Shown: positions 546 through 64,000 of the stretch, piece by piece
Layout: every line of letters starts with the position of its first letter
Numbering within the stretch: the first letter of the stretch is position 1
Source of the DNA: Pseudomonadota bacterium
GTDB lineage: Bacteria > Pseudomonadota > Gammaproteobacteria > Ga0077536
Direction: 5' to 3'
NCBI GenBank assembly: GCA_018668255.1
Contig: JABISZ010000099.1
Coordinates: 1,918 to 65,917, forward strand
DNA length: 64,000 nt
Notes under the pieces: model-generated
What the model saw: the letters and a program-made list of their open reading frames with translations, nothing else
Told to the model about the DNA's origin: nothing
Databases searched by the model: none
Made by a program: the position numbers and the translations under genes

Positions 546-2125
546 TATGACTCCCCAAATACACGTTTAATATGTTCTTCACTTGGCTTCTCGGTCACCT
601 GAGATACCAGATACATTGTAACTATTGAGCACAGACCTCCGATGGTGGCGCAGGCAAAAGGATTGATTTTTTGCTCTTCTAAAAAAGTTCCGACTATCTC
701 TAGATGACCATTTCCCAACCAAGATGCGTCAAATCCTACCCCGTGCATTACAGAAAAAACTACTCCACCTGTAACAAATCCACTCAGGGCTCCAACACGT
801 GTCGCGCCTTTCCATAAAACGCCCAGAAACATCGGCGCAGCAGTTGCTGCCATCATACCTCCTATACCTATCCAAACTAGAAGCGCCACGTTCATTTCCC
901 GTGTTGACCACGCGATCCATATGGCGACCATTAGCACTAAGACTGTGGCTATGCGGCTAATATATAGACCAATTTTATCGATGCGGGCATCTGACGTCTT
1001 CTGCATATATTTCGGCGCAATAGTTCTCCTGAAAATATCATTAGCAAATATTTGAGCGGTAGATACTACTAAGCCATCGGCGGTAGACATAACTGCTGCA
1101 AGAACTCCCGAGCAAATGAGCGCGGCAACCCAGGCAGGTAGCGTCGCAATAAAGAGTTCTGGAATCGCGTGGTTAGGGTTGGCCCCTTCCAACAAAAGAG
1201 CATCACCTAATATTGCACGAGCTAGAATTCCACCGCAGGTAATAGCAGGAAGGATCATGCCAAATATAAATGCTATTGTGATAAATTTTTTCTGATCTGC
1301 ATCGTTTTTGAGCGCCCATAGTTTATTTCCCACATGGGGCAAAAGCCCTAGAGGGAGATGAGCGAAGAAGATAGCAAAAATATCCCAAGTGGAATTAAAA
1401 ATCGGATTGGTAAGAGACAGAAATGATGTGAGCCCCCCGGTAGGGTCCAAGGTGTTGAGCTCCATCACCATTCCGGAAAACCCACCATCTACTTTATAGC
1501 CGATGAGAAACATTCCAAGCACTGCACAGGCTAATACCAACATCAGTGCCCCTTGAATTCCGTCCGTAAGGATATCCGCATGGGCGCCGCCCAATGCGAT
1601 ATAGAACATAAGGACAATAGCCGTAATGATTAGAGCTTGTAGGGTTTCTAAGCCTAGCATTTGTGTAAACATCACTGCACCGGCTAACAGTTGACCGGCT
1701 AGATAGACCATAAGTAACATTGAGAAGCAGGCCGCTAGGAGTCTTAAGGCATCTGAATTGAAGCGATCACCTAGGAATTCCGGAATTGACCTGCTGCCGA
1801 ATGAAGCGCCAGCTCTGCGCACTGCCACCACACAGATTGCTACGCCAATATAGAGGCCTAGCGGATAAGCTATGGCGTACCATAGGACTGAGAAACCACT
1901 TTTATACGCTAGTCCAGGCAAGCCTAAGAAAGTTGCCCCACTAGCGGCTGTCGCAGTCATAGCAAATGCGAGAAAAACCGGACCATAGCTACCACGAGCA
2001 GTTGCAAAATCGTCACTGCCTTTAACTCGTCTCATGCCCACTAGGCCGAAAACAATCATCATGCTTATATATAACGCTAGAAATAACCAGCCCCAAAAGA
2101 TCAGAGGCTCCACACCAAATATCAT
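545..2125 (-). CDS. sodium:solute symporter (SSS) family transporter
   Basis: 526-aa polytopic membrane protein with many hydrophobic segments and an SSF-like central region. Its stop overlaps the start of the downstream SDR gene by 1 nt. Confidence 0.75.
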   Translation of the reverse strand: MIFGVEPLIFWGWLFLALYISMMIVFGLVGMRRVKGSDDFATARGSYGPVFLAFAMTATAASGATFLGLPGLAYKSGFSVLWYAIAYPLGLYIGVAICVVAVRRAGASFGSRSIPEFLGDRFNSDALRLLAACFSMLLMVYLAGQLLAGAVMFTQMLGLETLQALIITAIVLMFYIALGGAHADILTDGIQGALMLVLACAVLGMFLIGYKVDGGFSGMVMELNTLDPTGGLTSFLSLTNPIFNSTWDIFAIFFAHLPLGLLPHVGNKLWALKNDADQKKFITIAFIFGMILPAITCGGILARAILGDALLLEGANPNHAIPELFIATLPAWVAALICSGVLAAVMSTADGLVVSTAQIFANDIFRRTIAPKYMQKTSDARIDKIGLYISRIATVLVLMVAIWIAWSTREMNVALLVWIGIGGMMAATAAPMFLGVLWKGATRVGALSGFVTGGVVFSVMHGVGFDASWLGNGHLEIVGTFLEEQKINPFACATIGGLCSIVTMYLVSQVTEKPSEEHIKRVFGES

Positions 2126-2287
2126 TTAAAATTCCCTAAGAGTTGTTTATGGTCTTTGTACTTAAGTATTATCAACAGGAGGCGGTTTTATAACATTCCT
2201 AGAGCTTTCTTTCTAGGAGCTTTTTTTGGTCAATCCGCGTTATGCTCAGCCCCTGACATTAGAAATATTAAGGTGTAGGTAAGTAAA

Positions 2288-3532
2288 ATGGTTAAAATCG
2301 TTGAACCTCAAGAAGCCGTAGATCAAATTAATGATGGTTCTCATCTGGTGTTCCCTGGGTCGTGTGCTAATCCAGTCAGGTTTTATGAAGCTTTTTCTCA
2401 GGATATTGAAAGGTTTTCTGACTTGACCGTCTGCTCAGGGCTCTCTTTAGGTGATTATCGATTTTTAGAAACTGGTCTGGGAACAAATTTCCATTATAAA
2501 ACCTGGCAGGCTGCGCCTAAATTGAGAAAGTTGTTTAAAGAAAATGACAGGCGTAAGATTTCTTTTATCCCCACTCGATTGAGTGATTTAGATCAAGTGG
2601 TGAGACAGGGTGGTGCTGTTAGTCCCGATGCCGTAGTTATTCAAACCTCTATGCCTCAATCTGATGGTACTGTCAGTTTAGGCATTTCGGTTGGTCCCAA
2701 CCTACATTTCTCATCCGAAGCAACATTAGTTATAGCGGAAATGAACTCTAATATGCCCGTAACATGCGGCAACACTCGTATCCGATTGGAGGAAATAGAT
2801 TATGGCATAGAATCGTCGGAGGCTCTGACTATTTACGATACAGGTGAAGCTGGACCGCGTGACCAAAAAATTGTGGAGTATGTTTTGAGCTTGGTGCCAG
2901 ATAATGCGTGGGTGCAATTCGGGGTAGGCGCTATACCGGACAGAGTATTAGCAGGCTTGTCAGATATAAAAGGCGTTAATCTCTTTTCAGGAATGCTCTC
3001 TCAGAGCTTGGTGCAGTTTCTCGAAGCCACACCAAGCTCGACAAAAGTAATCAATGGAGAATTGGCAGGTAATCAAGCGCTTTACGACTATTGCCATTTA
3101 AATGAGCGTGTGGAGATGGCTCCGTTATCTAAGACGCATAATTTTTTCGAACTTGCAAAACTGCAGCCGTTCGTCTCTATTAATTCAGCTATTGAAATCG
3201 ATCTCCATGGGCAGAGTAATGGCGAGACCATTGGTCCAATTCAAATGAGTGGAGTCGGTGGCAGCCTTGATTATATTCAAGCTGCGCTGTTATCAAAAGG
3301 TGGTGTGTCTATCTTAGCGATGCCATCATCTACTAATGGAGACAAGCACTCTAAGATCGTTCCGTCTCTTGCGTCAGGCAGTGTGGTTACTACTCCGCGC
3401 TACTGTGTTGATTATGTGATTACTGAATATGGAATCGCATCCTTGAGAGGGAAAACTCTCTGGGAGAGAGCAGATGAACTTATCGGTATTGCCCATCCAA
3501 AGTTCAGAGACGAGTTAGCTAACAGTCTTTAA
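2288..3532 (+). CDS. acetyl-CoA hydrolase/transferase family protein (acyl-CoA:carboxylate CoA-transferase)
   Basis: 414 aa. C-terminal ...IEIDLHGQSNGE...SGVGGSLDYI... is typical of the acetyl-CoA hydrolase/4-hydroxybutyrate CoA-transferase family. Divergent from the symporter gene. Confidence 0.7.
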   Translation: MVKIVEPQEAVDQINDGSHLVFPGSCANPVRFYEAFSQDIERFSDLTVCSGLSLGDYRFLETGLGTNFHYKTWQAAPKLRKLFKENDRRKISFIPTRLSDLDQVVRQGGAVSPDAVVIQTSMPQSDGTVSLGISVGPNLHFSSEATLVIAEMNSNMPVTCGNTRIRLEEIDYGIESSEALTIYDTGEAGPRDQKIVEYVLSLVPDNAWVQFGVGAIPDRVLAGLSDIKGVNLFSGMLSQSLVQFLEATPSSTKVINGELAGNQALYDYCHLNERVEMAPLSKTHNFFELAKLQPFVSINSAIEIDLHGQSNGETIGPIQMSGVGGSLDYIQAALLSKGGVSILAMPSSTNGDKHSKIVPSLASGSVVTTPRYCVDYVITEYGIASLRGKTLWERADELIGIAHPKFRDELANSL

Positions 3533-3537
3533 AACTA

Positions 3538-4209
3538 TTACCTACGGTTAAACACTCTTTCTATAGTAATAGGTTCTAGCAATAGGCGCAGGTTTAACGT
3601 AATCGTATAGAGAAGTTCTTCAGGCGCTTGCAGTTTGAGGACTTCTAGATAAGTACCTCCCATCATATTTGTTGTTTCGAGAATGAGAGAATTCTCTTTC
3701 CAGTAAGCTAATGTGTGCCCTATACTATCCTCAACTAATTCTTCGCCCTTTGCAGAGTATATTCGGCCTGACGGATTCGGTTTTATTTCTCTAGGCAAAA
3801 GTTGATCATATAGGAAAAGATAATTCTTTTCTTTTGCACTAATGCTAAGGGTTTTGGCGGATATCAGTGGATAAGCAGTACCGACGCGTTTTAGGTTTTT
3901 TGCTGCTTTTCGTTCTTTCCCTTCCTTTACAGTTCTCCAATAGGCACTCTGAGATTCGTCTCCTGCAGTCCCGCGGGTGCGACCTCCAGAGATGGGCCTA
4001 TTGAATTTTGACATAGGTAGTCTTCGTCGGAATTGTCCTTTTAACTTCTTTTTGAGGTTGTCACTTGAGGGTTTGTCGAGCACCCAATCGCCCAGTAATA
4101 AATCATCGCTGGCAATCGCAGAGTGATAGGGACTTAAGCATACTAAAGCGAGTAGTAGAGAAGGGGCAGTGCGGCCTCTAAGGAATATGATAGTAGTCGA
4201 TAGAATCAT
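3538..4209 (-). CDS. hypothetical exported protein
   Basis: ORF 3538..4269; probable start at MILSTTIIFL... (4209), an N-terminal signal-peptide-like segment ending ...AIASDD. No recognisable domain. Confidence 0.5.
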   Translation of the reverse strand: MILSTTIIFLRGRTAPSLLLALVCLSPYHSAIASDDLLLGDWVLDKPSSDNLKKKLKGQFRRRLPMSKFNRPISGGRTRGTAGDESQSAYWRTVKEGKERKAAKNLKRVGTAYPLISAKTLSISAKEKNYLFLYDQLLPREIKPNPSGRIYSAKGEELVEDSIGHTLAYWKENSLILETTNMMGGTYLEVLKLQAPEELLYTITLNLRLLLEPITIERVFNRR

Positions 4210-4362
4210 GATTAATCTATTTAGTTTTTGTTTATTTACGAATCTTTTTGGTTTTATACCACGAACCAAGGCAACATATTGTTATGATAATTTAACATGG
4301 TGCTTGAGCCAAGGACTGTATAAGCGCTATTGTAATAAAGAAACTATTGGGGAGGACTCGAT

Positions 4363-5031
4363 GTGATTAAAGTCATTTCAGTATTTAAGCGAAAAGTAGG
4401 AATGGGAGTAGATGAATTTCAGGATTACTGGCTGAATCATCACGGACCAATGGTTGCCCGTTTACCAAGCGTGGAACGTTATGTCCAGTCTCATACCAGG
4501 CGGTCAGGTTATGCCAGACATGAGCCTGCAGCCGATGGCCTTAGCGAGTTGTGGTTTGAAGATACAGATGCTCTTTACAATCTTCAATCATCGCGAGAAC
4601 TGCAGCAGGTTTCTGATGATGAGGAGCGCTTCATCGACTTGGCATCTTCTGTGCAAATTTTAGTCGATGAGCATGTAATAAAAGATGGGGCTGCTTTAGT
4701 TGAAGGTGTGAAAAATATCGAATTTGTTCGTCGAAAACATGAAATAGATGTTGATGCGTTCCAGCATCATTGGCGCGAGATACATGGGCCATTAGGAGCT
4801 TCAATCAAGCAAGTAAGCCGCTATGTTCAAAATCATGCAAAGAGTAGTTCCTACCTGAATGGCCGGTCTCCTAAGCTGGATGGCCTTGCCTTAACCTGGT
4901 TTAAAGATGTTGATGCTATGAGGGAATCTGCGCAGTCGGCAGAGTATGAGGCTACGCGTGACGACGAGGAAAATTTCCTTACTACCCCATTAGATTTCAT
5001 TATTGCTCAAGAGCATGTTTTAGTAGGTTAA
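4363..5031 (+). CDS. tandem EthD-domain protein
   Basis: GTG start with GGGGAGG RBS 7 nt upstream. Two internal repeats of about 100 aa (VGMGVDEFQDYWLNHHGPMVARLPSVERYVQSH... and HEIDVDAFQHHWREIHGPLGASIKQVSRYVQNH...) match EthD-like (dimeric alpha+beta barrel) domains. Confidence 0.65.
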   Translation: MIKVISVFKRKVGMGVDEFQDYWLNHHGPMVARLPSVERYVQSHTRRSGYARHEPAADGLSELWFEDTDALYNLQSSRELQQVSDDEERFIDLASSVQILVDEHVIKDGAALVEGVKNIEFVRRKHEIDVDAFQHHWREIHGPLGASIKQVSRYVQNHAKSSSYLNGRSPKLDGLALTWFKDVDAMRESAQSAEYEATRDDEENFLTTPLDFIIAQEHVLVG

Positions 5032-5098: not shown

Positions 5099-6175
5099 TC
5101 AGCAAAGGGGAATCACTTCTTCTGCAAATTCTTTTGCGGCTTCCCGGATGTTATGTAAAGGAGGAAGTAGACTGACTTCCGACAGGCCATGTTTGCCAGC
5201 TTCACTTATTTTCTCGGCTATTTCAGCTGCGCTGCCGACTAAAGTAGTGCCTTCTATCATCTCTGGTGTAACGAATTTCTTTTCTCCGTCAGTATAAAAA
5301 CTGCAATGGCCTTCATGAATGAGTTGATGTGCCTTTTCTTTGGGAAGTGGGAAGTTATCAACGTGATCACAGTATTCTTCCCATATGGATCGCATATACT
5401 CTGGAACCACGCTGTCCTCTTTCGTGTAACGCCAAATTTCATAGACGAAATGCAGAGCGGTCACTGCCCAAGATCCGGCTTTTTCAACGATGGCGTCGTC
5501 AGTTAGCTTTTCTCCTGCACGAAGAATCACAGCATTCGTCAGTGTTGTTGTTTGGTAATTAATAAGTTCGCGGTTGGCCATTTGTGCTCCCTTACGAACT
5601 TGCTCAAGATTGTAGGTTAGGACAGGTATTTGCTCGTTAAAGACAGAGCAGAGGCCATCGCCATACATCCCCGCCGTTCTAAGTGCCCGGGGTCCATTGG
5701 CGGCGACGTAAATAGGAATAGGGTGCTCGATGTCGCGAAACCCTGAGCCATGCTCCTGCCAGACGATCGATGTAGTCCTTCCATTGTAGGTATAATCTAC
5801 TTCTTCTCCCCGGAGCATCGCTCTCACTACACGCAAATATTCCCTAAACTCTGTGATTGAGATCGGGTCTTGCCCCATCACGCGCATAGCGGTATGACCT
5901 GTCCCAATGCCCAGAAAGACTCTACCAGGCGCGAGTGCGTTGATTGAAGAGATCGCCGCCGCAGTCGTAGGAGCTATTCGGGTCCCTGCAATAGCTACGC
6001 CTGTTCCAAGCTTTATTCTTGAAGTATTTTGGGCGGCAAGTGCCATGGTCGCGTAGCAGTCTGACCACATCATCTGCGTATCGGGAACCCAGGCCGCATC
6101 GTATCCTAGATCTTCTAGATATTTTATAAAATGCCAGTCGGTAATTCTAGTTTGAACGGTCAAGCTAAATTTCAT
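5099..6175 (-). CDS. LLM-class (luciferase-like) flavin-dependent oxidoreductase
   Basis: 358 aa. TIM-barrel LLM signature: N-terminal ...LGYDAAWVPD..., central GIGTGH... Last gene of the VOC-LLM-DUF1329-LLM operon. Confidence 0.8.
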   Translation of the reverse strand: MKFSLTVQTRITDWHFIKYLEDLGYDAAWVPDTQMMWSDCYATMALAAQNTSRIKLGTGVAIAGTRIAPTTAAAISSINALAPGRVFLGIGTGHTAMRVMGQDPISITEFREYLRVVRAMLRGEEVDYTYNGRTTSIVWQEHGSGFRDIEHPIPIYVAANGPRALRTAGMYGDGLCSVFNEQIPVLTYNLEQVRKGAQMANRELINYQTTTLTNAVILRAGEKLTDDAIVEKAGSWAVTALHFVYEIWRYTKEDSVVPEYMRSIWEEYCDHVDNFPLPKEKAHQLIHEGHCSFYTDGEKKFVTPEMIEGTTLVGSAAEIAEKISEAGKHGLSEVSLLPPLHNIREAAKEFAEEVIPLC

Positions 6176-6226
6176 ATTGTTATTCCCCTTTATCTAAACA
6201 CTGATAATCAATGTGACCTACAGAGC

Positions 6227-7582
6227 CTATCTGCCACGACGTTTATAATCTCTGCCGGTCGCACTTTGCATGTCCCCCGCATCAAAGTCTTTGACACTTA
6301 TGTCGTCAACATTGATCAAAGTTAATGCCTGTATCGTTGTACATCGGTTGGTTTGGATATCGATTGTCGAGAAGGCAGTCAGGATAGGAGCCCCAGTATT
6401 GTTATTATGCGTAACATGTGAGGTCGGGTGCGCATATGCGTTAATGGCGAACTTCCAAAGTGAGTTATTTGAGTCATACATTTTCCACAAGATAGGCAAG
6501 TGGGTTTGCGTATCGATGTAAAGGACCCGTTTTGACACTGACTCAGAATTAGCAACTGTTGTGCCTTCTAGAATATAGGTTTCTCTTAATTGCCAACTGA
6601 CTTTTGGGAAACACCCTGCACGACCATGAAAATCGGTGTGCCAATAGTCAACTTTTCGTGCTTTCAGATCAGATGTAGTTGCGCGGTCATGCTGATACAT
6701 CGGGAGAAGGGCAAAAGTACTTCCTTTGAACTTCCAGTTCATCGCAGTCAAACTGGCGGTGTAGCCCATGAAGTCGCTAGGCAAAATATCGCTACCAAAC
6801 ATCGATTCCTCTCGCGAAAACGAAGCGAGAGTTTGAGTTCGCCCGAGTTGTGGAATATATACCCAGCCATTAAGGGGCTTGGATTCGTCTCTATTGACAA
6901 ACACAAGGGCTTGAGTCCCATCATAACTTCCGGCGTCAATAGCTTCGAGCCTAAATGCCCCATACGCATCCTGGGCATTATTCATGATAGATGGCGTTGG
7001 TTGTACGACATGTCGATACATGAAGCGCATAAGTTTGGCTTTAAATGTCATCTTGAACTCGACTTTCTCGCTGCGCCAGTCCCTCAAGGTCCAATGCATC
7101 TCTGGGATGTTGCCATTGTCCCCTTGATAGGCGTAACGCATATTCCAAGCTAATTTAAGTCCTGCATCCGGGTCGTTTGTCTTGAGTTCTCCACCAAAAG
7201 GAAGACCTTGCTGAAAGTCAGCTATGGTACCTGTTTTCTCTGGCAGATAAGGTTCAACACCTTGCTGATGGATAGAACTCAAGAAAGCTTCATGGGGATT
7301 GAAAGCTATAGGCTCACCAACTGTTAACGTCAGAAACTTACTCTTAATAAATTTCTTGAAATCAGGGTCTAAGAGATGTTGGTACTTATGGAGATTAGTG
7401 TCATTAATTATTAGCCCCGGTCGAGGGCTGATTTCATTCAATTCCTCTATATCATGCACGTAATCAGCAGCGTTGGTGTGCGACAACGGATAACCTATCA
7501 GTAAGGCACAGCATAATGCAGGCAAGACTCTTCCAGCTATAAGATTTAGCACAACTTTAAGACTAGGCGGCCCAAGAGACAT
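6227..7582 (-). CDS. DUF1329-family (LolA-like fold) periplasmic/outer-membrane-associated protein
   Basis: 451 aa with an N-terminal signal sequence. C-terminal ...KRVLYIDTQTHLPILWKMYDSNNSLWKFA... is typical of the LolA-like outer-membrane lipoprotein-sorting/DUF1329 clan. Overlaps the upstream LLM stop by 20 nt. Confidence 0.6.
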   Translation of the reverse strand: MSLGPPSLKVVLNLIAGRVLPALCCALLIGYPLSHTNAADYVHDIEELNEISPRPGLIINDTNLHKYQHLLDPDFKKFIKSKFLTLTVGEPIAFNPHEAFLSSIHQQGVEPYLPEKTGTIADFQQGLPFGGELKTNDPDAGLKLAWNMRYAYQGDNGNIPEMHWTLRDWRSEKVEFKMTFKAKLMRFMYRHVVQPTPSIMNNAQDAYGAFRLEAIDAGSYDGTQALVFVNRDESKPLNGWVYIPQLGRTQTLASFSREESMFGSDILPSDFMGYTASLTAMNWKFKGSTFALLPMYQHDRATTSDLKARKVDYWHTDFHGRAGCFPKVSWQLRETYILEGTTVANSESVSKRVLYIDTQTHLPILWKMYDSNNSLWKFAINAYAHPTSHVTHNNNTGAPILTAFSTIDIQTNRCTTIQALTLINVDDISVKDFDAGDMQSATGRDYKRRGR

Positions 7583-8651
7583 TTCCAGACATCTCTAGTT
7601 TTTGTAGTCTTGGCATGACTTCAGTCGCAAAACATTTTAGGTTTCGTTCAGCTTCGCTCCAGGGCATGCCCGCATAACTAAAGATTCCAATGTATGCTTC
7701 AGCCCCGATTCTTCGAGCATTTTTCACAATAGTCTCATAGCACTCGTCTGGAGTACCCCAAGTCTGTAAACCCATGAAAAATTCGATCGCTGCATCCACT
7801 CCAGATTTGTCCATGGCATCGGCGAATTTCCCATAATATTCGTACCCTTTTTGACCTTTTAAATGACCTGTGTCGAAGTTGTAGTGGTCGAGTACTGTCT
7901 GCCAATATCCCCCGATATATTGCTTAGCCATTTTGTAAGCGGCGTCTTTATCTGGGTTACACATAGTCCAACCCGCCATGATAGGGGCGGGAGGCTCTTC
8001 ACCATTTAGACGCACAAAGGCCTCGTTATAGTCAGCGATTTCTTTCTCTACCTGCTCCCATGGTTTTTGAGGGATGACTAGTAGGCCTATTCCGAGTTTC
8101 GCCATAATTTCTACTGATTCGGGTGACACCGCAGCGGCATAAGTGCGGCCCTTAAAGGATTTAAATGGCGCAGGTCGGATAAGTGCTTTAGGTTGATTTA
8201 CGAATTTGCCTTGGTATTCGCAAAAACCGTTTTCTAACCCAGACAGGACACACTCTGCACTTTCTACGAACCTCGGACGAGAATCGGCCATATCTTGACG
8301 AAAAGCATCAAATTCTACTCGCCCGGCCCCTCGTCCTAGGCCCAGGATAGCTCGTCCGTCGGAGATGTTGTCTAGCATAGAAATTTGCTCTGCAACACGC
8401 ATTGGATCATGCCAGGGCAAAACAACCACCATAGTTCCAAGTTTGACTTTTTTTGTGCGACCCGCCATGTAAGTTAAGAATTGAAGAGGATCTGGGCACA
8501 TGGTGTAATCTGTAAAGTGGTGTTCTACGCCCCACACAGACTCAAAGCCTAGAGGTTCTGCCATTTCGGCTAACCGCAACTCGTTGCGGTAAACGCTGCG
8601 ATCATCCAATGAATTAGGGTTCTGGAAAATTGTACTCATGCCAACGTGCAT
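7563..8651 (-). CDS. LLM-class (luciferase-like) flavin-dependent monooxygenase
   Basis: 362 aa. ...LGFESVWGVEHHFTDY..., ...ILGLGRGAGRVEF... LLM/bacterial-luciferase signature. Confidence 0.85.
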   Translation of the reverse strand: MHVGMSTIFQNPNSLDDRSVYRNELRLAEMAEPLGFESVWGVEHHFTDYTMCPDPLQFLTYMAGRTKKVKLGTMVVVLPWHDPMRVAEQISMLDNISDGRAILGLGRGAGRVEFDAFRQDMADSRPRFVESAECVLSGLENGFCEYQGKFVNQPKALIRPAPFKSFKGRTYAAAVSPESVEIMAKLGIGLLVIPQKPWEQVEKEIADYNEAFVRLNGEEPPAPIMAGWTMCNPDKDAAYKMAKQYIGGYWQTVLDHYNFDTGHLKGQKGYEYYGKFADAMDKSGVDAAIEFFMGLQTWGTPDECYETIVKNARRIGAEAYIGIFSYAGMPWSEAERNLKCFATEVMPRLQKLEMSGNVSWAA

Positions 8652-8692
8652 ATTATTGTCCTTATGGGCTTTGTTCTTGAAACTAGTATTTT

Positions 8693-9136
8693 CTATATTG
8701 TTTCTGTTTTCAAGCTGTCTGCAGTTTGTTCGTTATCGAAAAAATTCAACTCAATAGTTAAACCATCAGGGTCCTTCACAAACAATTGAGTTAAATTAAA
8801 ATTCTTCACCTCTTGTATGTGAAAGTCTATTTCAGCTTTTGTCAATCTATCTTCAAATTCTTGAATATTATCCGCTCTAAATGCGATGTGATCGAGTCTC
8901 CCAGTACCATTTTTCAGGTTTGATTTATTTTTGATCTCGTTATCGGGGTAACCTCCTGCAAAGTCCGCTGTCCCCGCATGTACAACTGGGACACCATCTA
9001 AGTAAAACCAGCTTCCAGCGAAGTCAAAATTAGGTCTAGGTCCCAACTCAAGGCCTAAAATATTAGAGTAAAAATCTGCAGTCCTATCTAGGCTTTGAGC
9101 ATAAATAAAATAATGATCGAGTCGTTTAATAGTCAT
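8693..9136 (-). CDS. VOC family protein (glyoxalase/bleomycin-resistance/extradiol dioxygenase fold)
   Basis: Start taken at MTIKRLDHYFIYAQSLDRTADFYSNILGLELG..., preceded by GAGGGGA RBS. Paired beta-alpha-beta-beta-beta modules with the conserved H...E pattern (LDHIAFRADN... E). Confidence 0.7.
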   Translation of the reverse strand: MTIKRLDHYFIYAQSLDRTADFYSNILGLELGPRPNFDFAGSWFYLDGVPVVHAGTADFAGGYPDNEIKNKSNLKNGTGRLDHIAFRADNIQEFEDRLTKAEIDFHIQEVKNFNLTQLFVKDPDGLTIELNFFDNEQTADSLKTETI

Positions 9137-9286
9137 AGTCTGCTCCCCTCGTGGTTCACACAATACTATAAATTAAAGCTCACGACAGTCCTTTCAACTT
9201 TATTGGCACTTGATAAGAGGGTCGCTCATCAGTTATGCTGCAGTGCAATATAATCTATTCAGCAAAATTTATTTTGGAGAGTTAAT

Positions 9287-10531
9287 TTGTTGTACCAATG
9301 GCATGAAGCTATTCGGGCGTCAGCGGCATCAATGAGGTCTTTTTCAGAAATGACAGTCTCCGTATTGAGCGATCCGGCAAACCCTTGGCGGAATGATTAT
9401 CTTGTAAAATCTGCAGCAGTGCTCGCGGATTTTGTCGGAGACTGTACTCTCAGTTACTCCAAACCCCACTGGCACGTGCGTGATGTGTCCGATACGCATG
9501 CGCAAAGCTTTTTCCAAGAAGCAATTATTGACAGTAAAGTATTCTGTAATCTAATCCACTTCTCTCGCTCTAACGAAGAATCTGAAAATAAATTGCCAAA
9601 AATGCTGGTTGTAGCACCGCTATCGGGTCATTTTTCCACTTTACTTCGAGGAACGGTTGAAACGCTTGTACAGAATTTCGATGTCTACATAACAGACTGG
9701 AAGAACGCGCGAGATGTCCCTGCAGATGAAGGAGCGTTTAATCTCGATAACCACCTGGATTACATACGCTATTTTATAGAGCTCTTGGGCGAAAATTTGC
9801 ATATTGTAAGCGTGTGCCAGCCAGGACCTTCCGTGGTGGCCGCAGTGAGTCTCTTGGCCGAGGATAATAGCCCATGTCAGCCTAAAACACTTACTCTTAT
9901 TGGATGTCCAATTGATACTCGCCAAAGCCCTACCGCGCCCAATCGCTTCGCTCAATCTCGCTCGTTATCCTGGTTTGAGAAAAATGCCGTGACGACCCTA
10001 CCTGCCTCTCAAAAAGGAGCATCAAGGATGGTTTATCCGGGCTTTCTCCAGTTAGGAGGTTTCATGGGTATGAACATTGACAAACATATAGCTGCCTATC
10101 GATCGCAATGGGTGAACTTACTTAATGAAGATCTTGAGCCTGTAGCCGCTCATCGAAAGTTTTACGATGAATATTTGTCTGTAATGGACCTTCCTGCAGA
10201 ATACTATCTTGATACAATAAAAAAAGTCTTTCAGGAGCATCATCTTGCCGAGGGGATAATGCTTCACAGGGGTAGGAAAGTCGATCCGTCCTGTATACGG
10301 AAAACTGCTCTTTTGACTATAGAAGGCTGGCATGATGACATCTCAGGTATTGGACAAACTCGGGCTGCGCACGATTTGTGCACTAATCTCCCCGAATGTT
10401 TACATGCCGAATATACCGATCCGGAAGCAGGACACTACGGGTTGTTTCACGGTGAGAGATGGAGACAAGCTATTGCACCTAAAATACTCGATTTTGCTCG
10501 TCAATATTCTGATGCAGGTTGTATGATCTAG
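9287..10531 (+). CDS. phaZ: PHA-depolymerase (PhaZ, intracellular type) family alpha/beta-hydrolase
   Basis: TTG start with GGAGAG RBS. The N-terminus MLYQWHEAIRAS... and internal blocks (APLSGHFSTLLRGTVETL..., YITDWKNARDVPADEGAFNLDNHLDYI, HIVSVCQPGPSVVAAVSLLA, DEYLSVMDLPAEYYLDTIKKVFQEH, DISGIGQTRAAHDLC) closely parallel Ralstonia-type intracellular poly(3-hydroxyalkanoate) depolymerase. Confidence 0.8.
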   Translation: MLYQWHEAIRASAASMRSFSEMTVSVLSDPANPWRNDYLVKSAAVLADFVGDCTLSYSKPHWHVRDVSDTHAQSFFQEAIIDSKVFCNLIHFSRSNEESENKLPKMLVVAPLSGHFSTLLRGTVETLVQNFDVYITDWKNARDVPADEGAFNLDNHLDYIRYFIELLGENLHIVSVCQPGPSVVAAVSLLAEDNSPCQPKTLTLIGCPIDTRQSPTAPNRFAQSRSLSWFEKNAVTTLPASQKGASRMVYPGFLQLGGFMGMNIDKHIAAYRSQWVNLLNEDLEPVAAHRKFYDEYLSVMDLPAEYYLDTIKKVFQEHHLAEGIMLHRGRKVDPSCIRKTALLTIEGWHDDISGIGQTRAAHDLCTNLPECLHAEYTDPEAGHYGLFHGERWRQAIAPKILDFARQYSDAGCMI

Positions 10532-13570: not shown

Positions 13571-14572
13571 ATGAACCAATATAAACTTCTGGAACAAGAT
13601 GAGTTCCCGCACGAGCCGAGCTCTGAGCAAAATTACAATGAAAGTGTTTACGTAAATAGTTTCGACCTTGCAACAAAAGCAGGGGGCTGGATGAGAATAG
13701 GTAATCGAGCAAATGAACGACATGCGGAAATGCAAGTGTGCATGTATTTGCCTGACGGAAGAATTGCTTGTCAGTTTCAAAAGCCCGCGATTGATGATAA
13801 TAGTGAATTTCGCGCAGGAGGTTTGCATTACCAGGTAACGAAACCTCTTCATCATGTAACTATGGAGTATGGCGGGGAGATTATGTTGTTAGACGATCCT
13901 GATTTATTGCGGGATCCAAAAAAGCTTTTTACTACTGCGCCCCGCGGAATCGCCAAAATCTCCTACGACATGACGGGGATATCTCCAGTTCATGGAGGCG
14001 AGCCGCTCTCATCGAGCCAACAGACAATGTATGGCAGGGACTTTTCTTTGGGCCACTTCAATCAACATATGAAGGTGGTAACTTCTATTGATATAGATAA
14101 CGTGAAAATTAAATTTGCTGGCTTGGGCTGGCGCGATCATTCTTGGGGACCTAGGTATTGGACAAACATCTACTTTTATCGACTGTTCATTGCAAACTTT
14201 GGTGACGGACGCGCAATGATGCTTCTTAAGCTTACGGACAACGATGGAAATGTAAGGGTGGGAGGCGTTCTGCAGTACGATGGTGAGTACGAAGAAATCA
14301 CTGATATGGACGTTACCACTCAGTGGACGAAGGCTAAAGATCCGGCGGCTGTAACCATATCTGTGCAAACCAAGAGACGGTCGGCAATCTTGAATGGTGA
14401 AATTTTAACTTTAGCTCCTTTGAGGAATCGTAGGAAAGTTGACGACCAGTATCTAGAATCACGTGTTGCCGAGGGGCTGACTCATTGGCAATGGGGCGAT
14501 AAAGAAACGTTAGGCATTACTGAGTACATTGAGCTTGTAGAAGACGGCCAGCCAGTTGGATATCCGCTGTGA
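13571..14572 (+). CDS. hypothetical protein (conserved, no domain recognised)
   Basis: 333-aa ORF with good coding appearance, first gene of the + strand cluster with APH and ACAD genes. Confidence 0.55.
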   Translation: MNQYKLLEQDEFPHEPSSEQNYNESVYVNSFDLATKAGGWMRIGNRANERHAEMQVCMYLPDGRIACQFQKPAIDDNSEFRAGGLHYQVTKPLHHVTMEYGGEIMLLDDPDLLRDPKKLFTTAPRGIAKISYDMTGISPVHGGEPLSSSQQTMYGRDFSLGHFNQHMKVVTSIDIDNVKIKFAGLGWRDHSWGPRYWTNIYFYRLFIANFGDGRAMMLLKLTDNDGNVRVGGVLQYDGEYEEITDMDVTTQWTKAKDPAAVTISVQTKRRSAILNGEILTLAPLRNRRKVDDQYLESRVAEGLTHWQWGDKETLGITEYIELVEDGQPVGYPL

Positions 14573-14614
14573 TGCAGGTTGTTTTTTCATAGAAATTAGA
14601 GTGGGTTATTAGTA

Positions 14615-15628: not shown

Positions 15629-15642
15629 TATGGAGTGCTCGA

Positions 15643-16014
15643 ATGTTTAACGACCCGCCCAACGCATCAGAACTTCTTTTGACAGTTCGCGAATATATAG
15701 AACAGCTCCTTCCTGATCTAGAAAGACAAGATAAATATCACGGCTTGTGTTGCACATATTTGCTCGATGTAGTGATGAGGGAGTTAGAAGAGCCTCCTAA
15801 CATAGGCGATCATAGTAATAACGCTTTGAAAGCTTTATTTAACAATGAAGACGAGCTTTCCGAAACAGAGTTTATGAGTAGTTTGTGTGCGTCTATTCGC
15901 AGAGGCGACCAGGATGGAAACCTTGACCGACTTTTGATTCTCCTCACCAGCCATGTTTCGAAAAAAGTTAGGGTGTCTAACCCTGACTACCTTGATGCAA
16001 AAGATTATCTCTAG
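15643..16014 (+). CDS. small acidic hypothetical protein (DUF6285-like, follows APH-like kinase genes)
   Basis: ATG at 15643 with GGAG 7 nt upstream; ORF-track TTG at 15625 overlaps the kinase stop by 4 nt. No catalytic motif. Confidence 0.5.
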   Translation: MFNDPPNASELLLTVREYIEQLLPDLERQDKYHGLCCTYLLDVVMRELEEPPNIGDHSNNALKALFNNEDELSETEFMSSLCASIRRGDQDGNLDRLLILLTSHVSKKVRVSNPDYLDAKDYL

Positions 16015-16365
16015 TGATACAACGGACCACGTACTTATAGATTAATTACTTCTGTTCAGACTGTATCTTGGTGCAATGCGATTGAAAGGGCGTGTACGAT
16101 ACATTTAGTTTGACTACATCAGATTATGAGACAGAGATCGCTTTAAACTGCAGAAGACCTGCCCTATTACACACCTCTCGGTCGGGCATAATAGCTTTCT
16201 GAGAGGGTTACTTTCTGGTCGCTTATTCAGCTCTCATTCCTCTGTTTGCAAGACAGTGCGTGCTGTGGGTGTGGAGTTATCTTTGGTGGTTTCTTCCAGA
16301 GCAAAAACAAGTAGAATTGTGGACAGCAGAGAAACTTGATAACTAGAGACATTTGGAGAAAGTAA

Positions 16366-26965: not shown

Positions 26966-26988
26966 GAAAAGTTACCTGCTTATTTTTC

Positions 26989-59546: not shown

Positions 59547-60755
59547 TTACTGAAGCATAGGAAGTCGACTGATTTTTCCATCAGAGACGGTTATCGCAGT
59601 GCCTCGCCCACCTAATACGAGAAGAGAGCCATCTGGCATCGATACGGGTGTTTTAATCCAGGACAATAATTTTAACTCTGTCCTGTCCGCCATTTGCCAT
59701 TCGCCATCGTCTGACATCGCGCCCATCAACCCCACAGCTCCGGATATGACCGGTAGATTACCTTCACCTAAGGCTACTCCAAAGAGCCCTTCTCTGCCTG
59801 GTTTCATGTTTTCTTCCCAAGTCATCCCACTGTCAGCACTAGATTTGTTGACCCCTGCGGCGCCAACGAGCACAGCTACTTCCCCTTTTTGCACTCCAGC
59901 CATCCAATACGCAGGCTCAGGCTCTCTGGGAGTAACTTGGGTGTCTCGCCTTACCCACGTTTCTCCGCCGTCATAGCTTTGTAGCACCATCCCAAATTCT
60001 CCAGCAAGTGTTACAACTGTTCCGTTTAACATTACAACGTTCCATGAAACATCACCGCGTCGAAAAGGAGGGCCCGGTGCAAATTTTGTCTTTATGGTCG
60101 GCGCAGGATCCATATCTAATTGATTTTGAAATTGGATGAAACCTTCATCCGGATAAAGTATGTAGTCCTCTCCATCTATGGCCGGCTTACCGTTTACGGT
60201 AGCCTTGAATTCTAGACTATCACTGTCCAAATTGGACACGCCGATATACCAGTCTGCTGCGAAAGCAGCAGGAAATTCGATTAAAGGAAGGCTGACTTCT
60301 TCGATAATAACTTCCTCAAAAGTAACTCCGTCGGTACTTTTTGAGATCATCCCGCGTCCTCCTACCGCCCAGATACCAGACTCGTTCGATGAAATATCTA
60401 AAATAGGTTCGTTATATTCAGACAGTTGTTGCACTTCGGAAATCACTTTTCCATCATAGCGATAAAGCATACCGTTGGAACTTCCTAAAAGCACATCAGT
60501 ATCCGAAACCACTCTTAACGACGTGAAGTCGACAGATGGTGTTTCCGGAATCATAGATAGAGTAGCGGCTTCCTGAGTTACTTCAAGCAAGCCGACTAAT
60601 CCATGGAGGCCAGCAACTATCACTCGTTCTTGACTAGGAAGATAGCCAGCGTCCATGACATCCACGTAGGATGTCTGAGTCGCGGAAGCGTTGCTCGAAC
60701 CGAAGGCGAGTGAGGCTAGTAAAATAGTAGATGCAATTTTTGACTTACAAATCAT
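59547..60755 (-). CDS. exported Ycf48/BNR-like beta-propeller protein
   Basis: 402 aa with a signal peptide (...LLASLAFGSSNASA). Repeated ...S.DGG.TW... / ...SDDGE.W... sialidase/Ycf48-type blades. Confidence 0.6.
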   Translation of the reverse strand: MICKSKIASTILLASLAFGSSNASATQTSYVDVMDAGYLPSQERVIVAGLHGLVGLLEVTQEAATLSMIPETPSVDFTSLRVVSDTDVLLGSSNGMLYRYDGKVISEVQQLSEYNEPILDISSNESGIWAVGGRGMISKSTDGVTFEEVIIEEVSLPLIEFPAAFAADWYIGVSNLDSDSLEFKATVNGKPAIDGEDYILYPDEGFIQFQNQLDMDPAPTIKTKFAPGPPFRRGDVSWNVVMLNGTVVTLAGEFGMVLQSYDGGETWVRRDTQVTPREPEPAYWMAGVQKGEVAVLVGAAGVNKSSADSGMTWEENMKPGREGLFGVALGEGNLPVISGAVGLMGAMSDDGEWQMADRTELKLLSWIKTPVSMPDGSLLVLGGRGTAITVSDGKISRLPMLQ

Positions 60756-60899: not shown

Positions 60900-61391
60900 T
60901 TAAGATGTAAATTCTTTGTATCCGCCGCCGAAATAGATCAGCGGTGCAGTGTCGGCAGATGAGTTGTCGTCTATCTGCTCTACTTTGCCACAAACTATTT
61001 TGTGATCTCCTCCTTTGTACACATTTGCCACGGAGCAAGTGAAAGATATTAACGAGCCGTCAAGCACTGGAGGACGATTAGGCTTCGCAGACCAACTTAC
61101 ACCGTCAAATTTGTTATCTCCTTTTTTTGCAAAGCGTCCAGATAGGCTTTGCTGTGAGGTAGACAGGACGTTTATGCAGAAGGAGTTAGTTTCTAACATG
61201 GGAGCTAAAGTATCCGAGTTATTGTCTACGCACACGAGTAACATTGCCGGTTCCAATGAGAGAGAACTTACTGCATTCATCGTGAGACCAAATGGAACCC
61301 CTTTGCTATCAACTGTCGTAACTATCGATACGCCAGACGCCCATAGGCTACACGCTTTTCGAAAAATGGCAGAATCGTTTTGGTCATTCAT
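60900..61391 (-). CDS. flavin reductase (NAD(P)H:FMN oxidoreductase, flavin-reductase-like domain)
   Basis: Start taken at MNDQNDSAIFRKACSLWASGVSIVTT...; split-barrel flavin reductase pattern (...VSIVTT.D..G.P.G.T.NA..S.S..P..L.V.....S.T...). Confidence 0.75.
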   Translation of the reverse strand: MNDQNDSAIFRKACSLWASGVSIVTTVDSKGVPFGLTMNAVSSLSLEPAMLLVCVDNNSDTLAPMLETNSFCINVLSTSQQSLSGRFAKKGDNKFDGVSWSAKPNRPPVLDGSLISFTCSVANVYKGGDHKIVCGKVEQIDDNSSADTAPLIYFGGGYKEFTS

Positions 61392-61860
61392 AAAAAATTG
61401 TTTCCTCTTCAGTGGATTGATACATGCTCTACAATTAGCACCAACGACTACGAGTTGAGCCGGGGAACCGTTTGACCAGCACGCAAGCGACATAAGGTTA
61501 TTTTAATCCCACAATCACCAAGTCTTTTGGCAAATAGCTCACGGATTTTAGCGATAATGAGCGTCGCAGAGCAAGAACGCATTTAATACAGCACCCTTTA
61601 ACTCTATGCGTAGGTGTTTTTGAGGAAGTGTTTTTGTCTTAAAAACGTAACGCTAATTGTCGCTCAATGCTTGCAGTGCCTACATAAGGCTAGTCTAAAA
61701 CTGCTTTTATGTCGCGTTGCAATAATAAAAATTGTGGGCTGTTGTTTAAAAGCAACGTAATTAGTGTTTACCTTTTACCACAAACGTGACAAAATCACGC
61801 GATGAACTCCTCAAACCGAATGTTGGGGAGGAAAATTATGGTCGACGTAGGGGAATCTTA

Positions 61861-64000
61861 GTGACGAAAACTAGTTTTACGAAAGGGCAAAGAATAGCAA
61901 ATTGGTTATTAGACCACAGGATGACGACCGTTTTAGGGATAGTTATTCCGACGCTCATTTTGGCATGGTCATTACCTTCGATAGAAGTTTATTCTCGATT
62001 TGCTGACTTGTTGCCGGCGAAGCACGAATACATAAAAAACTACAATCGAATGAAGCAGACCTTTGGTGGCGCTAATGTAGTAACTATGTCTATTGAAGTC
62101 ACCGGCGAAAACGAGGATATTTTTACCTACGAAACTTTAAATAAAATTAAATACCTGACTGATGAAGTCGACATGATTCAAGGTGTAAATCATTATCAAG
62201 TTGCTAGTATTGCCCATCCGAAAATACGACGTATCAGGACAACTGCAGGGGGGTTGATTAAGTCTGAGCCCGTCTTGCCCAGAGACATTCCAACCCAGCC
62301 CGAGTTGCTAAAGCAGTTGAGAGAAGAATCATTCAACAATGATATAGTATATGGGACGTATATTTCGACAGATGGGAAAGCGGCTTTAATACTTGCTGGC
62401 TTCGATGAAGAGCGGCTTGATTACAACAAGATTTTTACTCGGCTTAAAGATCTCAAAACCGAAATAGAAGCAGACGGTGTTACTAATCTTTATGTGGCGG
62501 GTGAACCGATGTTGAAAGGATGGATCTATTTCCATTCTGCTGAACTTACACTTATTTTCGGTATCACGTTGGCTGTAATGATACTCTTGCTTGCGCTTCA
62601 TTTCAGGTCCTTCGCCGGCGTTTTTGTTCCTCTTTTTGGGACAGGAATGGCCTGTATCTGGGGACTTGGCTTCGTTGGCTGGATGAACTTCAATCTCGAC
62701 CCTTTGATTTTGGTTGTACCAATTTTAATATCTGCCCGGACCGCTAGTCATTGTGTGCAGATGATGGAACGGTTTCATGATGAGATTCGGAAAGGACAGT
62801 CACGCGACGCGGCGGTTCGAACAAGTATGGGTGAGCTTTTGGTTCCTGCCTCCATAGCTATTTTTACCGATGCCGCCGGGCTTTTTGTTCTTACCGTGTC
62901 GTCAATCCCTATCATTGCTAAGCTAGGCTACTTCTGCAGCTTCTGGTCAGGAAGTAACCTCATAACAGTGTCGGTCTTAGTCCCTGTGCTTTTATCATAC
63001 TTGCCCACTCCCAAAATTAGCCAAGAAGAAAACGACGTCTACTCAAATATCATGGGTCGATGGTCGACTTTCTTAGTCAGTGATAAAGCCCAGAAACCAA
63101 TTTTTGGTTTTGCGATAGTGCTGATGGGTTTCTCTTTATTTTACGCAAAAGATATGGTGGTTGGGGAAAACATGCCTGGGTCGCCAATACTATTTCCTGA
63201 TTCAGAATATAACGTTGCCGCTAAAGCAATCGCTGAGAAGTTTGCGGGAGCGAACCAATTCAGTATTTATTTTGAGTCCGAAGAAGCTCACACGATGAAA
63301 CAGCCAGCGATAGTGGCTACCATGGAAAAATTCGCACTTTACATGAGAGACACCGATGGTTTTGGTGGAACGCGTACTATTCCGCATTTAGTGAGATCTA
63401 TAAATAGGCTTTACCACTATGATGATCCAAGGTGGGGTCTAGTGCCGTCGTCTCAAAGAGACATTGGTAACACTCTGTTTATGTATGAAGCGGGGGCCGC
63501 AATTCCTGGCGTTATTTTAGAATATATGGATCTAGAGGCGCGCACAGCGAACTTTGTGGTTTTTTATAAAGATGCCACTGGTCCAACAGTAACGAACGCA
63601 ATGATCGCCGCCAAAAAATTCCTAGATGAGAATCCGATGGAAGGGGTCACTCCTCGCTTTGCCGGAGGTATTATTGGAACTACCGCTGCGGGGAACGAAG
63701 AAGTTGAAGAATCGGAGTTAAATCAAACTATATTGATTATGATAGTCGTGATGGTGTCAGTGATGGCTACTTACCGATCTATTACCGCAGCCTTGTTGGT
63801 TTTTGTAGTATTAGCGATGGCGGTTATTATCAATCGAGCGTATATGGGATTTAGAGGTATTGGTCTTAACATCAATACGCTTCCGGTGACAGCTGTAGGT
63901 ATTGGTATTGGCGTGGATTACGCTATTTACATGCTGGACAGAATCCGTGAAGAAGTAAGACATAGATCGTTAGATGAAGCAGTTAAAACTGCTTTATCAA
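61861..64000 (+). CDS. RND-superfamily (MMPL/HpnN-like) exporter, N-terminal about 710 aa (continues past window end)
   Basis: Open frame from GTG 61861 (GGGGA 6 nt upstream) to the window end with no stop. 12-TM RND architecture: two large periplasmic loops separating TM bundles (...LTLIFGITLAVMILLLALHFRS..., ...TILIMIVVMVSVMATYRSITAALLVFVVLAMAVIINRAYMG...). The ORF track shows only spurious antisense ORFs here. Confidence 0.75.
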   Translation, partial: MTKTSFTKGQRIANWLLDHRMTTVLGIVIPTLILAWSLPSIEVYSRFADLLPAKHEYIKNYNRMKQTFGGANVVTMSIEVTGENEDIFTYETLNKIKYLTDEVDMIQGVNHYQVASIAHPKIRRIRTTAGGLIKSEPVLPRDIPTQPELLKQLREESFNNDIVYGTYISTDGKAALILAGFDEERLDYNKIFTRLKDLKTEIEADGVTNLYVAGEPMLKGWIYFHSAELTLIFGITLAVMILLLALHFRSFAGVFVPLFGTGMACIWGLGFVGWMNFNLDPLILVVPILISARTASHCVQMMERFHDEIRKGQSRDAAVRTSMGELLVPASIAIFTDAAGLFVLTVSSIPIIAKLGYFCSFWSGSNLITVSVLVPVLLSYLPTPKISQEENDVYSNIMGRWSTFLVSDKAQKPIFGFAIVLMGFSLFYAKDMVVGENMPGSPILFPDSEYNVAAKAIAEKFAGANQFSIYFESEEAHTMKQPAIVATMEKFALYMRDTDGFGGTRTIPHLVRSINRLYHYDDPRWGLVPSSQRDIGNTLFMYEAGAAIPGVILEYMDLEARTANFVVFYKDATGPTVTNAMIAAKKFLDENPMEGVTPRFAGGIIGTTAAGNEEVEESELNQTILIMIVVMVSVMATYRSITAALLVFVVLAMAVIINRAYMGFRGIGLNINTLPVTAVGIGIGVDYAIYMLDRIREEVRHRSLDEAVKTALS

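Follow-up and report, generated by a model that had tools for sequence, protein, structure and literature searches.

A DUF1329 paralogue with a LolA-like fold inside a conserved luciferase-like oxidoreductase operon of oxygenase-rich Gammaproteobacteria

The VOC-LLM_A-DUF1329-LLM_B operon and its products

We analyzed a stretch of 64,000 nucleotides from a Pseudomonadota bacterium of the gammaproteobacterial order Ga0077536 (GenBank assembly GCA_018668255.1, contig JABISZ010000099.1, positions 1,918 to 65,917 of the forward strand; the whole stretch is called the window below), in which a gene of the DUF1329 family lies between two genes of the luciferase-like monooxygenase (LLM) family. A six-frame list of open reading frames (ORFs) confirmed all four genes of the putative operon on the minus strand at the positions listed here, and the tightly spaced, co-directional layout described in a first-pass annotation of this DNA was reproduced in both coordinates and spacings. 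The genes, the intergenic region in front of them and the divergent neighbor are as follows.

8693..9136, minus strand: VOC, glyoxalase-fold protein of 147 aa, first gene of the operon (Pfam Glyoxalase)
7563..8651, minus strand: LLM_A, LuxA-like luciferase-like monooxygenase of 362 aa (Pfam Bac_luciferase)
6227..7582, minus strand: clade-1 DUF1329 protein of 451 aa, LolA-like carrier paralogue (PF07044 and PF17131)
5099..6175, minus strand: LLM_B, Mer/FGD-like LLM-class oxidoreductase of 358 aa, last gene of the operon (Pfam Bac_luciferase)
9137..9286, no strand: divergent intergenic region of 150 nt between VOC and PhaZ, the presumed operon promoter region as the only sizeable non-coding gap upstream
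9287..10531, plus strand: PhaZ-type intracellular polyhydroxyalkanoate depolymerase (alpha/beta hydrolase), divergent neighbor (TIGR01849, PHB_depo_C)

VOC and LLM_A are separated by 41 nt, LLM_A and the DUF1329 gene overlap by 20 nt, and 51 nt lie between the DUF1329 gene and LLM_B. The VOC ORF spans 8693..9163 when read from a TTG, and the ATG at 9136, with the Shine-Dalgarno sequence GAGGGGAG 7 nt upstream, is the start chosen by public gene callers (147 aa), while the ATG of LLM_B is preceded by AAGGGGA. The EthD gene at 4363..5031 is convergent with LLM_B and the operon therefore ends at LLM_B. Scanning for motifs inside the operon was uninformative, as the counts of sigma-70-like promoters and intrinsic terminators were at or below the shuffled expectation, and the same scan detected no promoter motif above chance in the region 9137..9286. 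The shared strand, the short gaps and overlaps, a gene order conserved across loci and the lack of an internal terminator signal above shuffled expectation suggest that VOC, LLM_A, DUF1329 and LLM_B are co-transcribed as a single unit.

The product of 6227..7582 matched PF07044 over residues 59-419 (E 5.9e-35, 121.7 bits with a cut-off of 23.1) as well as the LolA_like family PF17131 (E 1e-10, 42 bits with a cut-off of 30). Inspection of the sequence, carried out without a dedicated predictor, revealed an N-terminal signal peptide with a basic residue, a hydrophobic core and an A-x-A-type site (...SHTNA/ADY) and no lipobox. An equivalent Sec-type leader was present in 22/22 aligned DUF1329 homologues, down to 37% identity, which points to export of the DUF1329 product to the periplasm. 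No signal peptide was seen by the same inspection in any of VOC, LLM_A and LLM_B. An AlphaFold2 model built on the homologue alignment (pLDDT 82, pTM 0.83) adopts a LolA-like open beta-barrel fold according to Foldseek. The best matches in the PDB were LolA3 of Porphyromonas gingivalis (9tp6), a DUF1329 protein of Desulfovibrio piger (4z48), 3bk5 and 3buu, with E values from 6e-16 to 1e-11 over these four and TM-scores of 0.80-0.84 on the target for 9tp6, 4z48 and 3bk5; LolA and RseB came next. Pfam scan, leader and fold model all agree with the earlier description of the product as an exported DUF1329/LolA-like protein.

The unclosed beta-barrel is common to this protein and to LolA, LolB, LolA3 and members of the LolA_like family (PF17131; 4z48, 3bk5, 3buu), with TM-scores of 0.7-0.84 on the target. 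The window protein has roughly double the length of the LolA-type proteins and an additional N-terminal region at residues ~45-150, shares just 10-17% sequence identity with them and is encoded outside a lipoprotein-sorting context; the core RRVRR/KRVKR motif is replaced in the group of DUF1329 proteins to which it belongs (clade 1, see below). Relative to the two closest relatives, dN/dS was 0.19 and 0.10 for the DUF1329 gene and 0.02-0.10 for VOC, LLM_A and LLM_B. The DUF1329 gene is under purifying selection that is relaxed to some extent, which is common among exported proteins.

Among the flanking enzymes, VOC matched Pfam Glyoxalase (PF00903; E 1.8e-10, 41.7 bits with a cut-off of 20.6) and reached no NCBIfam equivalog cut-off. 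Both LLMs matched Bac_luciferase (PF00296, cut-off 27.9 bits), LLM_A with E 1.4e-63 and 215.5 bits and LLM_B with E 2.3e-41 and 142.6 bits, and neither attained any NCBIfam subfamily cut-off. The nearest solved relative of LLM_A is the homodimeric LuxA of Enhygromyxa salina (8cbb, E 3e-41), while those of LLM_B are F420-dependent Mer enzymes (E 1.7e-25, over residues 15-206 alone, the N-terminal half), with FGD and Adf also among its relatives. LLM_B appears closer to Mer/FGD-type oxidoreductases than to monooxygenases and may be a dehydrogenase or reductase, so that of the two cytoplasmic flavin monooxygenases initially assigned here the LLM family and the missing leaders stand for both, while the label of monooxygenase suits LLM_B less well. 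With 29% identity over just 77 residues, LLM_A and LLM_B represent very different LLM subfamilies, and tandem duplication or a LuxAB-like pair of close relatives was ruled out. Both proteins are widespread and strongly conserved (57-75% identity) among other Gammaproteobacteria and in Binatia, Myxococcota and Rokubacteria. The assignment of PhaZ is based on TIGR01849 (514 bits with a cut-off of 300.75) and PHB_depo_C (E 1.1e-83).

Conservation and origin of the DUF1329-LLM linkage

One genome per species (GTDB) was scanned with the DUF1329 family alignment, which returned 79 loci, the number kept being capped at 80; the window proteins were placed on them by tblastn and 95 DUF1329 ORFs were used for a neighbor-joining tree without bootstraps. 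Three monophyletic groups were observed. Clade 1 consists of the window protein and 26 other full ORFs (27) plus two truncated loci, at 45-97% identity. Clade 2 includes 49 ORFs with 37-46% identity to the window protein, the two clades being ~42% identical to each other, and its members reside in clusters of the type BNR(-)-FlavRed(-)/MMPL-DUF1302-171aa-HEAT-DUF1329-esterase-SDR, referred to as canonical below. Clade 3 is ~19% identical and forms a second DUF1329 within some of the canonical clusters. Its copies were located ~3-4 kb upstream of the clade-2 gene in survey loci L040, L044, L046, L047 (two copies), L054, L058, L071 and L085, and the carriers are apparently mostly metagenome-assembled genomes (MAGs) from groundwater, freshwater and similar non-marine sources.

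The clade-1 arrangement was found in at least 28 species-level assemblies, and a chance adjacency of DUF1329 and LLM genes is ruled out by this conservation. The tight LLM-DUF1329 coupling of the first-pass annotation is not unique to this genome. All clade-1 loci have the same island of acyl-CoA dehydrogenase (ACAD)-LLM_C-SRPBCC-PhaZ(-)/VOC-(LLM_A)-DUF1329-LLM_B/EthD(-)-exported 223-aa protein-CoA transferase(-)-SSF-SDR, in which LLM_A is not always present. This locus family takes in the type MAG of the GTDB order Ga0077536 (L042) and TMED69, and the exact window DUF1329 protein is present on many marine metagenome contigs and in three NCBI MAGs. Both clades 1 and 2 occur in at least 15 assemblies, including the complete or near-complete OZ257136.1, CAXXLL01 and CBDCJB01.

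Closer examination of the informative clade-1 loci revealed LLM_B directly downstream of DUF1329 in 25/25, which makes it the invariant partner of the clade-1 gene. VOC was present upstream in 21 of 26 and LLM_A stood directly before DUF1329 in 11 of 26 while missing in the remaining 15; PhaZ was the immediate upstream neighbor in three early-branching loci. For assignable starts, the distance from the stop of LLM_A to the start of DUF1329 was -20, -20, -17, -17, -13, -13, +11 and +22 nt, and after VOC it was -4 (five loci without LLM_A), -14, +2, +6 and +11 nt with a few outliers. The gap between DUF1329 and LLM_B ranged from 35 to 233 nt. The tight junction is re-created with whichever gene, LLM_A or VOC, stands upstream of DUF1329.

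Because the outgroups have PhaZ(-)/LLM_A-68 nt-LLM_B (L095, a contig with the LLM_A protein of the Ga0077536 type MAG; JGI, NCBI) or PhaZ(-)/LLM_B (L090, complete genome OZ244981.1, where the survey gave just a clade-2 DUF1329) without DUF1329 at this position, the DUF1329 gene was inserted into an older LLM unit. On the unbootstrapped tree, the simplest history would begin with an ancestral unit PhaZ/LLM_A-LLM_B, into which a duplicated DUF1329 was inserted between the LLMs, an arrangement still seen in L031 and L045; VOC would then have been added upstream, yielding the layout of the window, and LLM_A would have been lost repeatedly. A general DUF1329-LLM_B linkage across phyla was not supported, with the distant DUF1329 genes of L091 and L092 (Binatia) being non-adjacent at 4-6 kb. 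No DUF1329 was found near the LLM_B homologues of L090, L093 and L094 or the LLM_A homologue of L096, and LLM homologues outside the two informative outgroups had unrelated gene neighborhoods.

In L095 (10237-12630), the LLM_A-LLM_B pair is followed by genes for three products, namely a small exported protein, one of 436 aa and a membrane protein of 222 aa. The 436-aa protein has an N-terminal hydrophobic anchor or signal and no Pfam match and is possibly beta-propeller-like; a hidden DUF1329 was ruled out, as it did not match the DUF1329 family profile. These downstream genes are another envelope link for the LLM_A-LLM_B pair.

The survey also bears on the explanation that no functional link exists, with a duplicated DUF1329 gene that landed by chance between the LLMs, was inherited there and serves general outer-membrane lipid homeostasis. 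We consider this unlikely. Within the same interval VOC and LLM_A are variably present, whereas DUF1329 and LLM_B remain neighbors in 25/25 loci, and this is difficult to reconcile with it, as are the stop/start overlaps that recur with LLM_A or VOC, whichever is upstream, and the absence of an internal terminator or promoter signal above shuffled expectation in the scan. A mid-operon insertion with harmful effects on expression would probably not have persisted, and the gene is under purifying selection. On the other hand, the entire island is syntenic in the lineage, LLM_A and LLM_B are widespread without DUF1329 and the phenotypes of the canonical system are pleiotropic, all of which a lack of function in the pathway would accommodate. 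The genomes are furthermore dense in monooxygenases, with four LLMs in this 64-kb window and an order Ga0077536 that is exceptionally rich in these enzymes (36-40 per Mbp), so that a gene would land next to an LLM by chance more readily than in most genomes.

The canonical envelope cluster, clade-specific residues and known systems

Part of a canonical cluster is located at the right end of the window, with the following genes.

59547..60755, minus strand: beta-propeller (BNR/Ycf48-like, weak match; PSII_BNR 22.5 bits, below the cut-off of 27)
60900..61493, minus strand: flavin reductase, candidate FMNH2 supplier for the LLMs (Flavin_Reduct E 5e-40)
61786..64000, plus strand: MMPL/RND-type inner-membrane transporter running off the window, 823 aa in full (MMPL E 2.9e-30)

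The full length and start of the MMPL gene were deduced from L088/L089. In the source species the DUF1302 gene comes next, beyond the end of the window, and in the relative L078 the order is MMPL-DUF1302-171aa-HEAT-DUF1329(clade 2)-esterase-SDR. Public contigs of the source species with the flavin reductase are shorter than 10 kb and stop inside DUF1302; judging from the relatives, its own clade-2 DUF1329 is probably present. The flavin reductase in the canonical cluster is a second, independent link of the transport cluster to flavin-dependent oxygenation. The beta-propeller orthologue adjoins FlavRed/MMPL in about 30 clade-2 loci. In most clade-2 loci (about 30; e.g. L078, L062 and L065) the flavin reductase is kept between beta-propeller and MMPL.

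DUF1302, the beta-propeller (weak match) and MMPL are all encoded in the source species at 52 kb from the studied DUF1329 gene, and none of DUF1302, BNR or RND stands beside the DUF1329 gene in the window or in any of 28 clade-1 loci. The first-pass annotation had read this as a DUF1329 gene separated from its partners. This did not hold, since the gene belongs to a separate monophyletic paralogue clade and the canonical cluster of relatives retains a clade-2 copy, which rules out that the canonical DUF1329 moved away. Its 'Ycf48-like' gene near 59.5 kb matches PSII_BNR only below the cut-off, and its RND gene ~52 kb away is of the MMPL type, starts at ~61786 and is not the closest candidate, as an MMPL/LolA-like pair lies ~9 kb off.

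This pair is part of the left flank beyond window position 1, which consists of SSF-SDR, an acyl-CoA synthetase and then TetR-MMPL(763 aa)-LolA_like(258 aa)-alpha/beta hydrolase. The MMPL has a sterol-sensing-domain match and the LolA_like protein matches PF17131 with E 4.7e-65; the pair is about 9 kb from the studied DUF1329 gene, and the cluster represents the third LolA-superfamily system within about 80 kb. It corresponds to L006:14304-19081, about 4-9 kb outside window position 1. Genes for alpha/beta hydrolases were present beside all three LolA-like loci (PhaZ, Abhydrolase_3 after clade 2 and Abhydrolase_1 after the left-flank LolA_like).

Comparison of clades 1 and 2 identified 74 positions conserved at >=90% in both, including C324 and C414, and eight positions that are fixed differently. 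A core motif L-[RK]-R-V-[RK]-R is found in clade 2, clade 3 and PDB 3bk5, while clade 1 has L-G-R-T-Q-[ST] at residues 246-252 of the 6227..7582 product (DNA about 6827-6847), with the intermediate forms LRRSQS and LERTQT in early-branching members. The common conserved positions would fit a shared scaffold and shared partners.

These residues can be weighed for a role outside transport, in which the clade-1 protein would act as a stand-alone periplasmic sensor, binding protein or enzyme-like factor (e.g. in ester handling) for a compound related to the LLM pathway. RRVRR is lost in clade 1 and kept in clade 2, clade 3 and 3bk5, RseB and MucB show that the LolA-like fold can be a sensor, alpha/beta-hydrolase genes adjoin all three LolA-like loci, and an esterase-type role was raised by Thompson et al. 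for PP_0765/PP_0766 (10.1101/2020.07.04.188060). We regard such a role as very unlikely given that the 74 positions, including the two cysteines, are conserved across clades 1 and 2, that the Foldseek comparison of the DUF1329 model found no catalytic motif or hydrolase fold match, and that the later Foldy analysis, which predicts contacts of PP_0766 with the DUF1302 barrel PP_0765 as well as with the BNR/RND pair PP_2018/PP_2019, favored transport over hydrolysis (PMC10866462).

The four-component system of DUF1302, DUF1329, BNR and RND, DUF1329 paralogues and DUF1329 genes of catabolic islands are already known; the four components are cofit, the phenotypes are pleiotropic and export of a cell-envelope component was proposed (Price et al., 10.1101/072470). 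The best-studied set is AmeABCD of Castellaniella defragrans, in which DUF1302 (AmeA), DUF1329 (AmeB), COG4447 (AmeC) and RND (AmeD) are all contiguous, disruption of ameB impairs growth on monoterpenes and the whole is regarded as an efflux system associated with the metabolism of monoterpenes (PMC6394551). AmeB resembles the window protein in being a 451-aa periplasmic DUF1329 protein of the LolA superfamily tied to the catabolism of hydrophobic substrates, and the same four component types are found in the cluster at the right end of the window and in its relatives. Unlike AmeB, the window copy is an additional paralogue that has no neighbor from the other three families and lies between genes for cytoplasmic LLMs.

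DUF1329 proteins that work with BNR/RND partners encoded elsewhere are represented by PP_0765/PP_0766 with PP_2018/PP_2019 of Pseudomonas putida, Sama_1588-1591 and Psest_1122/1123 with Psest_1923/1924. In these sets DUF1329 remains paired with DUF1302 and no LLM operon was reported, whereas the clade-1 copy of the window has no adjacent DUF1302. The P. putida mutants do not grow on Tween 20 and butyl stearate (Thompson et al., 10.1101/2020.07.04.188060). Because hydrolases adjoin the three LolA-like loci and P. putida requires its system on fatty esters, hydrophobic esters can be put forward as a lead for the candidate cargo class.

DUF1329 genes that, as in the window, are physically linked to clusters of oxygenase or catabolic genes acting on hydrophobic substrates include phnK (Delftia Cs1-4, phenanthrene), pipB (Thauera, p-cresol), ORF61 (Comamonas testosteroni, steroid) and the one in the 'nanopod' cluster of ORM2a (PMC13101534). 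In contrast to the window gene, these copies generally have RND, DUF1302 or YCF48 nearby and were not reported inside an enzyme operon. The sole match in the plasmid search, a DUF1329 protein 34% identical to the window protein, came from the P. veronii plasmid NZ_CP142043.1 (L097/L098). On this conjugative IncP plasmid from an aniline-contaminated site, a dmpKLMNOP phenol monooxygenase operon with a sigma-54 regulator is followed by a YCF48-related gene (263343-275089), and the DUF1329 gene (1768-3096) lies across the record start from the latter.

A search of a literature library for DUF1302 together with 'luciferase-like' found no paper, and an orphan DUF1329 paralogue that is inserted in, and translationally coupled to, an LLM operon appears to be undescribed. 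The earlier remark that the linkage had not been seen described therefore stands for the orphan paralogue in an LLM operon and not for DUF1329 in catabolic islands, which has been published.

A proposed role for the clade-1 carrier

We propose, with about even confidence, that the clade-1 DUF1329 protein is a pathway-specific periplasmic adaptor that is co-expressed with VOC, LLM_A and LLM_B and uses a DUF1302 barrel and an MMPL/beta-propeller machine encoded elsewhere, with the flavin reductase of the core cluster supplying the LLMs. The 6227..7582 product would be an accessory paralogue of the LolA-like component in a DUF1302/DUF1329/beta-propeller/MMPL system for hydrophobic molecules, whose core machine, with a DUF1329 copy of its own, would be encoded in the region that spans the right end of the window. 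The additional copy, inserted into the older cytoplasmic operon PhaZ/LLM_A-LLM_B, would now be co-transcribed and often translationally coupled with VOC, LLM_A and LLM_B, so that the carrier would be made only when these oxidoreductases are made. Most likely, it would give the shared barrel and MMPL pump a second cargo specificity, directed at the compound that the VOC/LLM pathway consumes or at a toxic intermediate arising in it. Reduced flavin for the LLMs would come from the flavin reductase of the core cluster, and the products of the VOC/LLM pathway would feed the surrounding CoA-activation and beta-oxidation genes. The carrier may serve uptake or delivery of a hydrophobic substrate, as suggested in the first-pass annotation.

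Periplasmic binding proteins of the orphan type, which deliver substrates to shared ABC or TRAP transporters, are encoded with catabolic genes, apart from the membrane components. The arrangement proposed for the clade-1 carrier would resemble such orphan binding proteins serving shared ABC transporters in its genetic uncoupling; fold and transporter class are different and the comparison is an analogy alone.

Several observations weigh against the adaptor model. The whole 20-kb island is syntenic across the lineage, and the conserved adjacency is therefore partly vertical inheritance. Because homologues of LLM_A and LLM_B (57-75% identity) are widespread without an adjacent DUF1329, these enzymes do not need the carrier. 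Thirteen clade-1 assemblies had no clade-2 locus among the 80 loci kept, which could reflect MAG incompleteness or the limit to these loci. Having lost RRVRR, clade 1 may no longer work like the canonical copy, and the left-flank MMPL/LolA-like pair could be the real partner of the orphan DUF1329. Furthermore, the normal export direction of MMPL/RND fits better with efflux or tolerance than with uptake.

RND/MMPL pumps are normally proton-driven exporters, and an efflux/tolerance adaptor that clears a membrane-toxic substrate or oxygenated product of VOC/LLM out of the periplasm or inner membrane via the MMPL pump and the DUF1302 barrel would differ from the adaptor model in direction alone. 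Co-expression with oxygenases would coincide with the appearance of toxic intermediates. An outward direction also matches the description of AmeABCD, the best-studied DUF1302/DUF1329/COG4447/RND set, as efflux (PMC6394551) and the export of a cell-envelope component proposed by Price et al. (10.1101/072470). That the P. putida mutants fail on Tween 20 and butyl stearate would rather suggest a role in acquiring substrate, however, and the core cluster holds catabolic-type genes (flavin reductase, esterase and SDR), and efflux seems rather improbable to us. Equally doubtful, in our estimation, is a more far-reaching form of the adaptor model, in which paralogous periplasmic LolA-like adaptors from different catabolic operons would re-program one DUF1302/MMPL machine as a substrate-selective import route that takes hydrophobic molecules into an oxygenase pathway, with the change from RRVRR to GRTQS in clade 1 as the specificity determinant.

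The remainder of the window is dominated by lipid-type catabolism, with four LLMs in total, three acyl-CoA dehydrogenases, ETF and ETF-QO as well as a CoA transferase, an acyl-CoA synthetase, a thiolase, an enoyl-CoA hydratase, SDRs, EthD, SRPBCC and the PhaZ-type depolymerase. Besides the DUF1329 protein, the island encodes a second exported protein (3538-4269, minus strand; 223 aa from a probable internal Met start) with the signal peptide MILSTTIIFLRGRTAPSLLLALVCLSPYHSAIA/SDD and no Pfam match. It is present in 23/24 clade-1 loci reaching that far (all except L034) at 32-48% identity, with a second, weaker match in L032 at 27% identity, and its gene adjoins the CoA-transferase gene in most loci, L032 and L033 excepted. 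At 13571-17559 (plus strand), DUF7064/DUF7065, an APH-family kinase, DUF6285 and an acyl-CoA dehydrogenase are encoded together, as in many clade-1 loci; the pairing of kinase and ACAD presumably resembles the LvaA/LvaC and ACAD10/11-type handling of 4-hydroxyacyl-CoA. LLM_D (26% identical to LLM_B) adjoins a DAHP synthase gene at 25937-28053 (minus strand), and a recurring adjacency was noted in two distant genomes (L091:8001-12301 and L094:8001-13670), where an LLM_B homologue neighbors DAHP_synth_1 and a Fer4/CCG protein.

The locus is a well-supported synteny observation and not a mechanism. DUF1302/DUF1329/BNR/RND systems are widespread and have strong phenotypes on fatty esters, terpenes and aromatics, and as far as can be judged from the sequence the locus would represent a naturally uncoupled DUF1329 paralogue expressed together with two defined oxidoreductases. 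Cargo and partner binding can be compared between the two clades, and the substrates of the LLMs would hint at the cargo of the carrier. The host lineage is within or near uncultured marine and freshwater Gammaproteobacteria that have a very high monooxygenase content and are implicated in hydrocarbon turnover, and the finding bears on the movement of hydrophobic carbon across the envelope in such cells.

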